Assembly (NCBI RefSeq): GCF_044647545.1
Contig: NZ_CP172818.1
Direction: 5' to 3' (one strand)
From: Escherichia coli
Lineage (GTDB): Bacteria > Pseudomonadota > Gammaproteobacteria > Enterobacterales > Enterobacteriaceae
DNA length: 64,000 nucleotides
The position numbers and the translations under genes are program-made. The notes below the pieces were generated by a model, which worked only from the letters and a program-made list of their open reading frames with translations, was not told the origin of the DNA and did no database searches. This document shows positions 3,717-61,391 of the stretch, piece by piece (the first letter of the stretch is position 1; the number at the start of each line of letters is the position of its first letter).

Positions 3717-4478
3717 ATGGTTTCATCATTCACATCTGCCCCACGCAGCGGTTTTTACTATTTTGCGCAAGGCTGGAAGCTCGTCTCGCAACCTGGGATT
3801 CGGCGTTTCGTTATTTTACCGCTGCTGGTCAATATTTTGTTGATGGGGGGCGCATTCTGGTGGCTATTTACGCAGCTCGATGTCTGGATCCCGACGCTCA
3901 TGAGTTATGTTCCGGACTGGTTACAATGGCTGAGCTATCTGTTGTGGCCTCTGGCTGTCATCTCTGTGCTGTTAGTGTTTGGCTATTTCTTCTCAACGAT
4001 TGCTAACTGGATTGCCGCTCCGTTCAATGGTTTATTGGCTGAACAACTGGAAGCACGATTGACTGGCGCTACACCGCCAGATACCGGGATTTTCGGTATC
4101 ATGAAAGATGTGCCGCGAATCATGAAACGCGAATGGCAAAAATTTGCCTGGTATCTGCCGCGCGCAATTGTATTGCTAATTCTTTACTTCATCCCTGGTA
4201 TTGGGCAAACCGTCGCGCCGGTACTATGGTTCCTGTTTAGCGCCTGGATGTTAGCCATCCAGTATTGCGATTACCCCTTCGATAACCACAAAGTGCCGTT
4301 TAAAGAGATGCGCACCGCCCTGCGCACACGCAAAATCACCAATATGCAGTTTGGTGCTTTAACCAGCCTGTTTACGATGATCCCGTTGCTTAATCTGTTC
4401 ATCATGCCCGTTGCCGTTTGTGGTGCGACGGCGATGTGGGTCGATTGCTATCGCGATAAACACGCGATGTGGCGGTAA
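3717..4478 (+). CDS. cysZ: sulfate transporter CysZ (253 aa)
   Basis: Full-length [34 protein letters not shown]...; multi-pass membrane protein; sits next to cysK. Confidence 0.95.
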
Positions 4479-4662
4479 CAATCTACCGGTTATTTTGTAA
4501 ACCGCTTGTGTGAAACAGGGGTGGCTTATGCCGCCCCTTATTCCATCTTGCATGTCATTATTTCCCTTCTGCATATAGATATGCTAAATCCTTACTTCCG
4601 CATATTCTCTGAGCGGGTATGCTACCTGTTGTATCCCAATTTCATACAGTTAAGGACAGGCC

Positions 4663-5634
4663 ATGAGTAAGATTTTTGAAGATAACTCGCTGACTATCGG
4701 TCACACGCCGCTGGTTCGCCTGAATCGCATCGGTAACGGACGCATTCTGGCGAAGGTGGAATCTCGTAACCCCAGCTTCAGCGTTAAGTGCCGTATCGGT
4801 GCCAACATGATTTGGGATGCCGAAAAGCGCGGCGTGCTGAAACCAGGCGTTGAACTGGTTGAACCAACCAGCGGTAATACCGGGATTGCACTGGCCTATG
4901 TCGCTGCCGCTCGCGGTTACAAACTTACCCTGACCATGCCAGAAACCATGAGTATTGAACGCCGCAAGCTGCTGAAAGCGTTAGGTGCAAACCTGGTGCT
5001 GACCGAAGGTGCTAAAGGCATGAAAGGCGCAATCCAAAAAGCAGAAGAAATTGTCGCCAGCAATCCAGAGAAATACCTGCTGCTGCAACAATTCAGCAAT
5101 CCGGCAAACCCTGAAATTCACGAAAAAACCACCGGTCCGGAGATCTGGGAAGATACCGACGGTCAGGTTGATGTATTTATTGCTGGCGTTGGGACTGGCG
5201 GTACGCTGACTGGCGTCAGCCGCTACATTAAAGGCACCAAAGGCAAGACCGATCTTATCTCTGTCGCCGTTGAGCCAACCGATTCTCCAGTTATCGCCCA
5301 GGCGCTGGCAGGTGAAGAGATTAAACCTGGCCCGCATAAAATTCAGGGTATTGGCGCTGGTTTTATCCCGGCTAACCTCGATCTCAAGCTGGTCGACAAA
5401 GTCATTGGCATCACCAATGAAGAAGCCATTTCTACCGCACGTCGTCTGATGGAAGAAGAAGGTATTCTTGCTGGTATCTCTTCTGGAGCAGCTGTTGCCG
5501 CGGCGTTGAAACTACAAGAAGATGAAAGCTTTACCAACAAGAATATTGTGGTTATTCTACCATCATCGGGTGAGCGTTATTTAAGCACCGCATTGTTTGC
5601 CGATCTCTTCACTGAGAAAGAACTGCAACAGTAA
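4663..5634 (+). CDS. cysK: O-acetylserine sulfhydrylase A / cysteine synthase A (323 aa)
   Basis: [57 protein letters not shown]...; PLP-dependent fold. Confidence 0.97.
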
Positions 5635-9532: not shown

Positions 9533-9955
<423 letters not shown>

Positions 9956-14920: not shown

Positions 14921-14958
14921 GGGAAAAGACGAAATCCTCCCCACAAATGCAGGGAGGA
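14921..14958 (-). terminator. putative intrinsic terminator downstream of ucpA
   Basis: Stem tcctccc/gggagga (14935-14941 and 14952-14958) followed on the - strand by a T-rich run; about 13 nt past the ucpA stop, upstream of cysP. Confidence 0.45.
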
Positions 14959-29575: not shown

Positions 29576-29616
29576 CTCTTTTACATCCTTAAACTGATAT
29601 ACATTGCCGAAAGCCC

Positions 29617-32243: not shown

Positions 32244-32313
32244 CGCCTTTACTCCCTGTTAGTTGTTATTTATCCGGCCAACACACCCACGCGGCAAGCG
32301 TCGCATCCGGCAT

Positions 32314-38993: not shown

Positions 38994-39447
38994 CTGCTTC
39001 CTCCTGTTTGGTGAGAGATGCCAGATAATCCACCAGTTGCTGCACGCTTTGCGGGTCGTGGCTGTTTAGCTCGAAAATCGGCTCTTCGAAGCCCGTCTCA
39101 AGCAATAACTTTCGCGTTGCGGCGACGTCAGCATCTGGCATGTCCGTTTTACTGATGACGGCGATTTGCCGTTTGCTGACGCCAATATCCAGCAACCCGG
39201 CAGGCAACCGACTTTCCGGGTCATTCGCGCCGTGGACATAGATCAGCATGTCCACATCCTGTAGCGTGGTAATTAAGGCGTGATACCAGCGGGGATGGCT
39301 AAAATATTCACCCGGCGTATCAATATCGCCCTTATCATTAAATTCCACGGCCTGTGTTTTTCTGGCGAGGGTATAATTCCCCTGCAACGCATTAAATAAC
39401 GTTGTTTTTCCTGCCCCGACGGTACCCACAAACGCAATTCGTTTCAT
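38968..39447 (-). CDS. eutP: P-loop NTPase EutP (159 aa)
   Basis: MKRIAFVGTVGAGKTTLFNALQG... (Walker A). Confidence 0.9.
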   Translation of the reverse strand: MKRIAFVGTVGAGKTTLFNALQGNYTLARKTQAVEFNDKGDIDTPGEYFSHPRWYHALITTLQDVDMLIYVHGANDPESRLPAGLLDIGVSKRQIAVISKTDMPDADVAATRKLLLETGFEEPIFELNSHDPQSVQQLVDYLASLTKQEEAGEKTHHSE

Positions 39448-39459
39448 GAATGCCTCGTA

Positions 39460-39795
39460 TTAACTTTTGGTCATTTCACAAAGCGTATAATTTAATAAGC
39501 GTCCTAAACCACTGACGGTTTGTGATAACGCTTCTTCTACTGCGCCCACCGAGCCATAAATCACCAGCGCGCCGCTAAAACGGTCGAGAAAACCGATATG
39601 CACATCGGCGGCTTTCAACGCTAAATCACCGGCGATCATCGCCGTTTCTCCGGGAGTTAGCGTCATAATGCCGATTGCGCCCGCATCCGGAACGCCGATT
39701 TTCTTCGCCAGTTCCTCGCCGGGATGCGCGATGAGATGCGCCAGTGTGACCTGTTTACCGGGCACAAATTCCTGAATGATGCGTTCTTTATCCAT
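39460..39795 (-). CDS. eutS: microcompartment shell protein EutS (111 aa)
   Basis: ORF track 39460..39867; start taken at [32 protein letters not shown]...; ATG at 39793-39795; first gene of the eut operon. Confidence 0.92.
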
Positions 39796-39900
39796 GAGTC
39801 GCCGCCTGTGAAAAACTTTCGTGTATCGTGACAATTTTTCGTCAGAGTAAATAACAAAATTCGGCAAGCGCGTTTAAAAGGTGAGGTAGATCACTAAGAA
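39796..39900 (-). promoter_or_regulatory. presumed eut operon promoter region
   Basis: AT-rich sequence immediately 5' of eutS; assigned by position, no motifs mapped. Confidence 0.3.
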
Positions 39901-40159
39901 TGGAGAGATATTTTATGTTAAGAAAAAAAACATACATTGTATGAATATAAACGGGAACCAATAAGTTTTGTTTATCATATTATATAGACTTCTTTAATTT
40001 TTAATAATTAGCAGAATACATATTTAATTACTGTTGTATTCTAAAAATATTTATCTTCACCCCATTTAAAATAATCTAGGATTTTATTCAGAAAATAAAA
40101 AAGACCCGAAAAAATCCTTCCCCCCCAAAGGCGCTAATTCATCCATATTAACTCAAGAC

Positions 40160-40710
40160 TTCATAGAAAATTTTCTTAACCCCCATATAGAGCCTCTCTA
40201 AGCCTATTATCCTTTTATTATCAAATCTCTAACCCATCTTTACCTATCTGCAAAAACACACACAAACCACTATTTTATTTTTTTTAAAAACGGAAAAAAG
40301 CATAAGGAAACGAAACAAATGAGAAAAATTTCAAAAAAAAAGAAAAATAGAAAAAAAATAATAAAAAAAACGAAAGCGAATACGAAAGGAAGAAAAAAAA
40401 AAACAAAAAATTTCAAATTCCCCAACCCACAGCCACAAAGCAAAACGAACAAACCTGAGGAACTTAAAGAAAAAGAGTATATGAAACTTAAACTAACACC
40501 TAGCTAACTATAGTAACCGAAGAAAGAACACAAAAAAGAAACAAAAATACAAAAAAAAACTAAACAAAAAAAAAAGAAAATCATAAAATTTTTATCTCAA
40601 CATAAAAAAAAAATTGAACAAAAAAAAAATGACCCCAAAAAAAACACCCCAAAAAACAACAAAAGGAACACAACAAAACAAACAAAAAACACCCCAACAC
40701 CACAGGAAGG
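40160..40710. repeat. unclassified adenine-rich low-complexity tract (no coding capacity)
   Basis: By manual count 39-44 A per 60 nt on the + strand across 40321-40680; at least four A10-A11 homopolymer runs (40393-40403, 40566-40575, 40604-40613, 40620-40629); a C7 run at 40120-40126; short degenerate repeats (aaaaaacaccccaa appears twice). Only low-complexity K-rich and F-rich pseudo-ORFs. Confidence 0.7.
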
Positions 40711-40728
40711 GAGAGGAATCAGCTAAAC

Positions 40729-40756
40729 CGCTTACCCTGAATATTCAGGGTAAGCG
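40729..40756 (-). terminator. putative maeB terminator hairpin
   Basis: Perfect 12-bp inverted repeat cgcttaccctga-atat-tcagggtaagcg, 18 nt past the maeB stop; the following U-run on the - strand is short (tttagc). Confidence 0.5.
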
Positions 40757-40773
40757 TGAGAGTTAAAAAAGAA

Positions 40774-43053
40774 TTACAGCGGTTGGGTTTGCGCTTCAAC
40801 CACGGCCAGCGCCACCATGTTGACGATACGACGTACCGATGCGATCGGCGTTAACACGTGAACCGGCTTCGCCACGCCCATCAGCACCGGACCGACAGTC
40901 ACACCTTCCGAGCTGGAAACGCGCAGTAAGTTGTAACTAATGCGGGCAGCTTCCATGTTCGGCATCACCAGAATATTAGCGGAACCTTTCAAAGGGCTGT
41001 CCGGCATACGGTCGTTGCGAATCGCTTCCACCAGCGCTGCATCGCCGTGCATTTCACCATCAATCATCAGTTCTGGCGCACGTTCCCTGACCAGTTCCAG
41101 CGCCTGACGCATTTTGCTCGACGACGGGCAGTCAGAAGAACCAAAGTTGGAGTGCGACAACAGAGCCACACGCGGTTCAATACCAAAACGACGAACAGTT
41201 TCTGCCGCCATCAAGGTGATCTCCGCCAGCTCTTCTGCATCAGGCTCATCATTGACGTAGGTATCGGCAATAAAGGTGTTACCACTCGGCAACAGCAGCG
41301 CGTTCATGGCACCTGCGGTGTGAACGCCATCGCGATAACCAAAGACATTTTTCACCACGCTAAAGTGTTCATGATAATCGCCCACCGTACCGCAAATCAT
41401 TGCATCGGCTTCGCCACGCTGAACCATGATCGCGCCGATCACTGTCGGGTTACTGATCAGCGCACGCTGCGCCTGCTCCTGAGTGACACCGCGACGCTTC
41501 ATGATCTGGAAGTATTCGGTCCAGTACTCTTTAAAGCGCGGATCGGATTCGTTATTGACGATCTCAAAATCAACGCCCGCCTTGATCTGCAAGCCCAGTT
41601 TCTGAATGCGCATTTCGATCACGTTCGGACGACCAATAAGAATCGGTTTCGCCAGTCCCAGCGTTACCAGTTCCTGAGTGGCATGCAGAACGCGCGCCTC
41701 TTCCCCTTCCGGCAGAACGACGCGCTTCGGCGCTTTGCGAGCCTGGGAGAAAATCGGCTTCATAAACAGGTTGGTTTTGTAAACGAACTCTGTCAGCTTG
41801 TCGATGTAGACGTCGAAATCAGCAATCGGACGCGTCGCCACGCCCGACTCCATCGCCGCTTTAGCGACCGCAGGAGCGATCTTAACGATCAAACGCGGAT
41901 CAAACGGTTTTGGAATGATGTATTCCGGGCCGAAACTCAGATCTTGATCGCCATACGCCGAAGCAACGACTTCGCTCTGTTCCGCATGGGCCAGTTCTGC
42001 AATCGCGCGTACTGCCGCCAGTTTCATCTCTTCGTTGATGGCGGTTGCGCCAACGTCCAGCGCGCCACGGAAGATAAACGGGAAGCAAAGGACGTTGTTC
42101 ACCTGGTTCGGGTAGTCGGAACGGCCGGTACAGATGATGGCATCCGGACGCACTTCTTTCGCCAGCGGCGGCAGAATTTCCGGTTCCGGATTCGCCAGCG
42201 CCAGGATCATTGGTGCCCGAGCCATTTTCTTCACCATTTCCTGGGTCAGCACTTTCGGGCCGGAACAGCCGAGGAAAATATCCGCACCTTCAATCACATC
42301 ATCGAGGGTACGTTTGCCGTCATCCACCACCGCATATGCGGCTTTGGTTTCCGCCATATTTGGCTCACGGCCCTGATAGATAACGCCTTTTGAATCACAA
42401 ACCACGATGTTATGTTTTTGCAGCCCCAGCGCCACCAGCAGGTTCATACAGGCAATTGCTGCTGCACCCGCGCCGGAAACCACCATCCGCACGTCGGAGA
42501 TGTTTTTCTCCACCACGCGCAATCCGTTGAGGATGGCGGCAGTGCTGATAATTGCCGTGCCGTGCTGATCGTCGTGGAATACTGGAATATTCATCCGCTC
42601 GCGCAGTTTCTGTTCAATATAGAAACATTCTGGCGCTTTAATGTCTTCGAGGTTGATGCCGCCGAAGGTCGGTTCAAGCGCGGCGACGACTTCAATAAAT
42701 TTGTCCGGGTCGAGTTCATCAACTTCAATGTCAAATACATCAATCCCGGCGAATTTCTTAAACAGAACGCCCTTGCCTTCCATCACCGGTTTGCCTGCCA
42801 GCGCGCCAATGTTGCCTAACCCCAGCACCGCCGTACCGTTAGAGATCACCGCCACCAGGTTACCACGCGCGGTATATTTGTAGGCTTTTAACGGGTCTTT
42901 TTCGATTTCAAGACAAGGTGCGGCAACGCCTGGTGAGTAGGCCAGCGCCAGATCGCGCTGCGTTGCCAGAGGCTTGGTTGGAGAAACCTGGATTTTCCCT
43001 GGAACTGGAAATTCATGGAAATCAAGTGCACTTTGTTTTAACTGGTCATCCAT
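40774..43053 (-). CDS. maeB: NADP-dependent malic enzyme MaeB (759 aa)
   Basis: [50 protein letters not shown]...; malic enzyme domain plus C-terminal PTA-like domain. Confidence 0.97.
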
Positions 43054-60527: not shown

Positions 60528-61391
60528 TTAAATGCTTTTACCAAAAGTATTGCATTGTGCCGGATCGCCACTGTCGAAACCACGTTTAAACCAGCTGTAG
60601 CGTTGCTGAGAAGTGCCATGTGTGAAACTGTCTGGTACTACTCGCCCCTGACTTTGCTGTTGTAAACGGTCATCGCCGATGGCCTGCGCCGCGTTCAGCG
60701 CCTCTTCCAGATCGCCGGTTTCCAGAACACCTTGCTGCTGCATACTATGCCCCCAGACACCGGCAAAACAGTCGGCCTGGAGTTCCATACGCACAGATAA
60801 GCGGTTCACTTCCGCCTGCGTCGCGTTTTGTTGCAGTTGACGAACTTTCGGCTCGATGCCTAACAGTTTCTGCACATGATGACCGACTTCATGGGCGATA
60901 ACGTACCCCTGGGCAAAATCGCCATCCGCGCCAAGTTTGTCTTTCATGTCATCATAGAAGGAGAGATCGATATAAACCGTGCCATCCGCCGGGCAATAGA
61001 ACGGTCCCATAATGGATTGGCCCGCCCCGCAGCCGGTGCGCGTCATTCCACGGTACATGACCAGCTTCGGTTGCTGATAGGTTTTACCCATCTTCTCGAA
61101 TTGCTGTCCCCAGGTGTCTTCCGTGGTTGCCAAAATCACCGAAGTGAATTTTGCGGCTTCGTCTTCATTAGGACTAATTGACCGTGTTGATTGCTGTTGG
61201 GAAACCGGCTGTCCGGTCATCAACCCGGTTAAATCAACGCCATAGTAGCCTGCAACCAGCACGACTATCAGTAAAATCAGCCCGCCTTTACCGCTTGGCA
61301 GGCGAAAACCTGGACCGCCCATTGACGGACCGCCGGAGCTATTGCGCCTGTCTTCAACATTGTCACTTTCACGTCGCCCTTGCCAACGCAT
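60528..61391 (-). CDS. ypfJ: putative zinc metallopeptidase YpfJ (287 aa)
   Basis: [51 protein letters not shown]...; HEVGHH zinc-binding motif. Confidence 0.9.

Follow-up and report, generated by a model that had tools for sequence, protein, structure and literature searches.

The adenine-rich eutS-maeB spacer of an Escherichia coli genome record is very probably a corrupted copy of a two-gene accessory island

The window, i.e., the whole stretch of 64,000 nucleotides of Escherichia coli DNA that was analysed (RefSeq assembly GCF_044647545.1, contig NZ_CP172818.1), carries an A-rich tract with many homopolymers between eutS and maeB. We regard this tract, with a probability of about 0.9, as a consensus or polishing artefact, that is, as a corrupted copy of a 2-kb island with two genes and not as a biological element. 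In the isolate itself, the usual accessory island of 2 kb is almost certainly present between eutS and maeB. The comparisons showed the tract to be a deletion-only derivative of the native island, base- and strand-biased and private to this record.

Composition and boundaries of the spacer

The spacer between the eutS start (39795) and the maeB stop (40774) is 978 bp long in the window, as the sequence-only reading of this DNA had stated, and the K-12 spacer, which that reading had put at about 0.3 kb, measures 292 bp. The tract proper (40103-40718, 616 nt) contains 54% A and lies about 10 SD off the rest of the window. Over 40291-40718 the plus strand consists of 62.4% A, 16.8% C, 10.7% G and 10.0% T, in line with the A-richness and the G and T contents near 10% noted before; the part from 40103 to 40290 is low in G (5.9%) without being A-rich. 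When the composition was scored per 200 nt, the top single-base fraction was 0.655 in the tract, with a mean of 0.306 (SD 0.035) for the window, and outside the region it never exceeded 0.405, so the claim that this composition is unique in the window is borne out.

Long homopolymers were defined as runs of at least eight A or T or at least seven C or G. Eleven of the 14 in the window fall in 40120-40644: one A11 (40393), three A10 (40566, 40604 and 40620), two A9 (40333 and 40551), three A8 (40351, 40363 and 40637), one C7 (40120-40126) and one T8 (40278). A twelfth long run, an A8 at 39923, is also located inside the eutS-maeB spacer. The runs reported earlier, namely at least four A10-A11 runs, further A8-A9 runs and the C7, were all located, and the degenerate short repeats described together with them turned out to be mere A-richness: TRF at periods of at least 8 gave weak A-dominated pseudo-repeats with scores of 36-71 and 2-5 copies. 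The ORF listing of the tract contained nothing but K/N- or F/L-rich low-complexity peptides of at most 62 aa, which agrees with the earlier view that no protein system is encoded there. A scan of 39000-41500 against Rfam at E <= 1 gave no match.

The left boundary, which had been unclear, was set by alignment with the ST648-type spacer: identity holds through 39980, sporadic damage begins at 39981 and heavy damage at about 40103. The native eutS CDS (39460..39795, minus strand) is intact, its ORF being identical to eutS of FDAARGOS_497, and the adjoining left part of the spacer (39796..39980) is undamaged and identical to the same genome. Homology to K-12 stops near 39912, with island-type sequence beyond. 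The first damaged segment (39981..40003, plus strand) has lost about 28 nt and shows one inserted G and two substitutions. It resembles the K-12-type allele (window ATATTATATAGACTTCTTT, K-12 ATATTATATAGACTGCTTT) and cannot be derived from the ST648 allele by deletion alone. Its arrangement is private to the window, as all 85 island-bearing genomes match it only at 93.7% and in two pieces. The left arm upstream of the glycosyltransferase gene (40004..40102, plus strand) shows sporadic single-base or short losses amounting to 12 nt, mainly G, T and C, and one G-to-A change. The part with high retention (40103..40302, plus strand) corresponds to the start of the GT4 glycosyltransferase gene, from which G and then T were dropped, and the ATG of island ORF1 is lost in the tract. 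The A-rich part (40303..40718, plus strand) represents the rest of both island genes, of which mainly A was retained.

The right edge of the tract is abrupt (40718/40719). Intact sequence restarts at ATCAGCTAAACC (40719), no more than 2 nt from the return of K-12 homology, and identity is 100% from about 40718/40719 on, through the native right flank (40719..40773) and into the maeB CDS (40774..43053, minus strand), which is intact and 100% identical to ST648-type genomes. The flank includes a perfect 28-nt palindrome (40729-40756) downstream of maeB that is kept in K-12, FDAARGOS_497 and ST648-type genomes; where a genome carries the island, the ORF2 stop codon sits directly before the palindrome. 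This hairpin had been taken for the native maeB terminator. It is indeed present, native and conserved, but a simple terminator scan does not call it, because no T-run follows.

The native ST648-type island and the distribution of the tract

Compared with FDAARGOS_497, the window shows 5 mismatches over about 62 kb. Outside the eutS-maeB spacer there are three ordinary-looking point differences, and the remaining differences are deletions in the window. At these three sites, the window matches the K-12 allele at one, does not match it at another and cannot be aligned at the third. By its sequence, the organism belongs to the ST648 type of E. coli. In FDAARGOS_497, a neutral zinc metallopeptidase gene is interrupted by a group II intron (ltrA reverse transcriptase/maturase; L004 22532-24874), and at 60839/60840 of the window the intron site is empty, with the gene uninterrupted and undamaged; this difference is a natural presence/absence.

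The eutS-maeB spacer of the ST648 type is about 2.4 kb long, with two genes inside. The native island comprises 1,994 nt (FDAARGOS_497, NZ_CP033850 5135430-5137416), and its composition is ordinary (A 26%, C 23%, G 24% and T 26%; about 48% G+C). The first gene encodes a GT4-family glycosyltransferase (WP_022645959) that remains below every NCBIfam cut-off. The product of the second (WP_224053104) is named in RefSeq 'glucosamine inositolphosphorylceramide transferase family protein' (GIPC-transferase-like) and has no NCBIfam match. This name is unusual for E. coli; ORF2 is situated at 3884-4852 of the FDAARGOS_497 locus (L001) and overlaps ORF1 by 53 nt. The island-type spacer is present in 85 of the 5,426 complete E. 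coli genomes.

The tract (40100-40730), on the other hand, was matched in none of these 5,426 genomes by BLASTN, a sensitive blastn included. It is not, then, a native conserved element, the outcome that would have overturned the earlier interpretation, and the comparison of homopolymer lengths across isolates proposed there finds nothing to compare, as no other genome among the 5,426 has the tract. BLAST against plasmids gave no match and against phages one trivial 40-nt match only, and an exact 46-mer of the tract was absent from the GTDB representative genomes and the JGI metagenome contigs.

The tract as an island with bases removed

In an alignment-free test, all 616 nt of the tract were found in the 1,994-nt island in the same order, as an exact subsequence spanning 1,975 nt of it (L001 2850-4843). 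There were 0 substitutions and 0 insertions over the 616 retained bases, and about 1,378 of the 1,994 island bases (69-70%) are missing. None of the 701 controls fitted, i.e., 500 shuffles, the reversed tract and 200 other targets. The shuffles needed 2,503 +/- 77 nt to embed (minimum 2,285; n = 500), the reversed tract 2,634 nt, and the tract on the 200 other targets 2,602 +/- 108 nt (minimum 2,312). The first 200 nt of the tract embed within 374 nt of the island, and shuffles of them within 833 +/- 42 nt. Likewise, a deletion-tolerant global alignment of tract and island scored 711, compared with 589 +/- 10 for shuffles and 552 +/- 31 for other 2-kb targets.

Local alignment identified 40103-40280 of the window as the island start with bases missing, e.g., GGCGCTGAATTTGCGATTCC rendered as GGCGCT-AATT--C-A-TCC. 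Segments of 50 nt that were placed independently proved colinear: those starting at 40103, 40153, 40203, 40253, 40453 and 40503 fell at 2856, 2942, 3018, 3091, 3712 and 3801 of L001, respectively. The segments from 40103..40302 cover L001 2856-3223 and those from 40453-40552 cover L001 3712-3907; the placement of the other 50-nt segments of the A-rich part was individually non-significant.

Retention over the first 250 island nt was 52/58 for A, 47/58 for C, 46/71 for T and 11/63 for G. Along the tract, G of the plus strand is lost first, T and C next, and A is mostly kept. Past the initial 250 nt of the island, A alone survives, at about 40-95% depending on the bin of 250 nt, and retention partly recovers in mid-tract (40453-40552). 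The A8-A11 runs arise because the bases between the A's of the island were removed, and since the tract is an exact subsequence, no substitution or insertion is needed to derive it.

Three other derivations were considered. Hypermutation of the island (G-to-A, C-to-T and the like) is ruled out by the exact-subsequence result; in alignments with collapsed alphabets, G>A, C>T on the reverse strand and T>A scored no higher than shuffles, and the remaining collapses scored above shuffles, as the underlying homology predicts. The K-12 spacer was rejected as a source, as it offers only about 190 nt beyond the shared flanks and is T-rich as well as A-rich. A model of monotonic decay by left-anchored insertion de-phasing was not adopted, as retention recovers at 40453-40552.

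Six further deletion patches in the window

The other intergenic regions of the window had been described as ordinary, which did not hold: six further sites with private deletions were found, all recorded on the plus strand. At the 3' end of yfeK beside cysM (9949..9953), an in-frame loss of 9 nt alters the C-terminus of YfeK, which has 119 aa and ends ...DKTL; K-12 has yfeS there (+958 nt), and the window's lineage is without yfeS between yfeK and cysM. Exact look-ups of this YfeK and of the 62-aa ORF of the tract returned no protein entry. A single T is lost in the cysP-ucpA spacer (14926), 4 nt from a +142-nt breakpoint of K-12, another in the pbp4b-yfeX spacer (20559), at a +152-nt breakpoint of K-12, and a third after ypfN (57653), exactly where K-12 has 11 extra nt.

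The eutA/eutB junction (29612..29614), which is the CPZ-55 insertion site in K-12 (+6,782 nt), has lost 27 nt, so that eutB lacks its start codon and the six sense codons after it. The longest eutB ORF of the window has 434 aa from a GTG, compared with 453 aa when intact; the gene has the appearance of a pseudogene, but its damage is the same artefact as the tract. In the eutH-eutG spacer (32273..32289), 46 of the 61 nt of a REP element are missing, and the bases left, for the most part C and A, keep their order. Genomes differ in REP copy number at this place, with a spacer of 216 nt in K-12 and 116 nt in FDAARGOS_497 and a match spanning 407 nt in FDAARGOS_536. The junctions at 29612 and 32273 occur in one piece in none of the 5,426 complete E. 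coli genomes.

When the small patches were pooled, G and T of the plus strand were lost preferentially (Fisher p = 0.003), with the same polarity as in the tract. All seven private deletion events, i.e., the tract and the six patches, lie at indel breakpoints between K-12 and the ST648 type: yfeS, cysP-ucpA, pbp4b-yfeX, CPZ-55, the eutH-eutG REP duplication, the island and the ypfN indel. In the compared span, each of the six large structural differences was hit by a deletion, and comparison of the window with FDAARGOS_497 revealed no deletion within CDS bodies. By our own rough estimate, the 35 nt on either side of the six large sites make up about 1% of the span, so six of six by chance would have a probability of about 1e-12.

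Damage at the same sites in BS-01 and BS-04

Strains BS-04 (NZ_CP172819, 4.52 Mb) and BS-01 (NZ_CP172816, 4.49 Mb) are Indonesian broiler isolates whose genomes are listed as 'complete' in RefSeq and are smaller than that of K-12. At the yfeK/cysM site, each record shows a different loss, with CCTG in the window, CCC in BS-04 and AGCCTC in BS-01 replacing GGTGCCTGCGCAA. The eutA/eutB junction of BS-04 has an 18-nt loss that is unlike that of the window. In the 50 kb of BS-04 that were examined, YfeK and EutB are the sole proteins with new WP_400... accessions, and the YfeK accession of BS-01 is also novel. Moreover, of the 5,426 genomes, BS-01 alone matches the T-deleted allele at 14926 perfectly, and BS-04 carries the same T loss in the cysP-ucpA spacer.

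BS-04 is about 98.5% identical to K-12 and only about 97% identical to the window's lineage; therefore, common descent does not explain the shared damage. The junction alleles of BS-01 and BS-04 could in part be natural lineage variants, and in both records, assembly defects of this class may be spread across the genome. A genome report of BS-01 and BS-04 giving the assembly method was not found in the literature search.

Proposed origin and alternative explanations

The most likely cause is that the true ST648-type sequence was piled up against K-12-type alleles in a consensus or polishing step; we infer the type of this step and name no tool. The K-12-type alleles could stem from a reference or backbone, from homologous genomes used for polishing, or from reads of a second strain. 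At structural disagreements, gap votes would compete with base votes and the caller would delete bases, and a choice between 'keep' and 'delete' in each column would give a deletion-only output. A base-dependent caller acting in contig orientation would produce the observed polarity. Such a computational step would have stripped about 1,378 of the 1,994 island bases and altered nothing else there, and the surviving A's would have collapsed into the A8-A11 runs of a tract with 62% A. The editing of 39981-40003 towards the K-12-type allele supports an artefact. In nanopore assemblies polished by homology, errors concentrate in non-coding regions, and conserved coding sequence is handled better than non-coding sequence (PMC8011154), a pattern that the clean CDS bodies match here. 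Two observations count against an artefact: no known tool is documented in the sources consulted to give a 70% base loss with an A-retention bias, and the recovery at 40453-40552 is not predicted by a simple monotonic decay. The A-retention bias and the partial recovery are left unexplained by the proposed mechanism.

A sequencing dropout, in which one low-quality long or gap-filling read, with most G, T and C missed by the base-caller, was built in unpolished, would also give a loss that is specific to strand and base, grows in the direction of the read and stops abruptly. It speaks for such a read that pulses or events missed in single-molecule sequencing naturally show up as deletions. We nevertheless consider it unlikely: 0 substitutions and 0 insertions in 616 bases resemble no raw long-read error profile, the bases at 39981-40003 are K-12-like, and the right edge is the return of K-12 homology and not an arbitrary read end. 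Moreover, the other patches have the same polarity and sit precisely at K-12-type structural breakpoints, and unrelated assemblies are damaged at the same sites. The last two points also bear on an alteration after assembly, be it file corruption or deliberate or simulated editing. A pure ordered subsequence is what an editing script would be expected to put out; however, the damage follows natural structural-variation breakpoints, and two genuine RefSeq records are damaged at these sites as well, one T loss being identical, which arbitrary corruption would not bring about. This makes a post-assembly alteration very unlikely.

It is very improbable that the tract is real DNA, whether as a decayed island pseudogene, as a phase-variable and hypermutable A-tract locus or as what is left of a retro- or mobile element. 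A-rich homopolymer tracts are mutable, accessory islands decay, and the eutS-maeB locus is a known variable spot, but such an origin would require many hundreds of deletions removing about 1,378 bases in 2 kb without one substitution, next to 62 kb of flanking DNA with only 5 differences. No mutational basis is known for a loss of G and T that differs between the strands. The tract occurs in none of the 85 island-bearing genomes nor in any other complete genome, and it is without a tandem array, element ORFs, an Rfam match or plasmid and phage copies. The same kind of loss also broke the eutB start and gutted the REP element in the same record. The chance that the strain physically contains the tract and the six patches is, in our view, very small.

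The sequence-only reading had offered three explanations, and its interpretation is supported in part. The evidence favours the one it listed last, a non-biological sequence or assembly artefact. Its suggestion of foreign or inserted DNA was right in so far as the lineage has an accessory island (85 of 5,426 genomes), but the tract is a corrupted rendering of that island and not a remnant of a mobile or retro-element. The hypermutable simple-sequence tract fails for want of a true repeat array and of any other isolate with the tract, and the AT-rich island silenced by H-NS does not fit a genuine island with about 48% G+C.

Implications

Biologically, the locus is unimportant, being most likely an ordinary accessory glycosyltransferase island. 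If the tract and the patches were real, they would call for an unknown mutational process that is deletion-only, guanine/thymine-biased and strand-specific, and that acts at recombination-prone hot spots of structural variation. The value of the case lies in data quality: in a single record, deletions alone have destroyed the two genes of an island, taken the start of eutB, altered the C-terminus of YfeK and left little of a REP element. In annotation pipelines, such defects would pass for pseudogenes, for new alleles or for new non-coding DNA. As a screen for this artefact, one can look for private deletions clustered at structural breakpoints between reference and sample, with clean CDS bodies. 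The data-quality flag covers this record, BS-01 and BS-04.

Comparison with known systems

Contingency loci, i.e., phase-variable homopolymers, resemble the tract in its A8-A11 runs, which are rare in E. coli. However, the tract consists of many irregular runs without a repeat unit and not of a single tract within a promoter or the 5' part of a CDS, it has no downstream gene inside it, and there is no population polymorphism, the tract being found in no other genome. The likeness to pseudogene decay in reductive genomes, with its deletion bias and A+T enrichment, is superficial: the tract is a short, low-G+C, non-coding gene remnant, but it lacks substitutions, its enrichment is A-only and strand-asymmetric, and its flanks are nearly identical to a sister genome, which leaves no time for decay. 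It also differs from mobile or retro-elements, as it has no ORFs of such elements, no Rfam match and no other copies, and the island accounts for its full sequence, and from AT-rich islands of the H-NS type, as the native island is not low in G+C and the bias of the tract is A-only.

Errors that reference- or homology-guided polishing leaves in long-read assemblies or introduces into them, as discussed for Homopolish (PMC8011154), come closer, with clean CDS, indel-type defects at non-coding or variable sites and recurrence across assemblies, although a 2-kb stretch with a 70% loss and A-retention is not described there. The closest counterpart is the ST648-type island itself, which occupies the same locus between identical flanks. 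The tract lacks about 69% of the island's bases, retains neither ORF nor the first start codon and contains 54% A instead of 26%, yet every base of the tract is present in the island in the same order.
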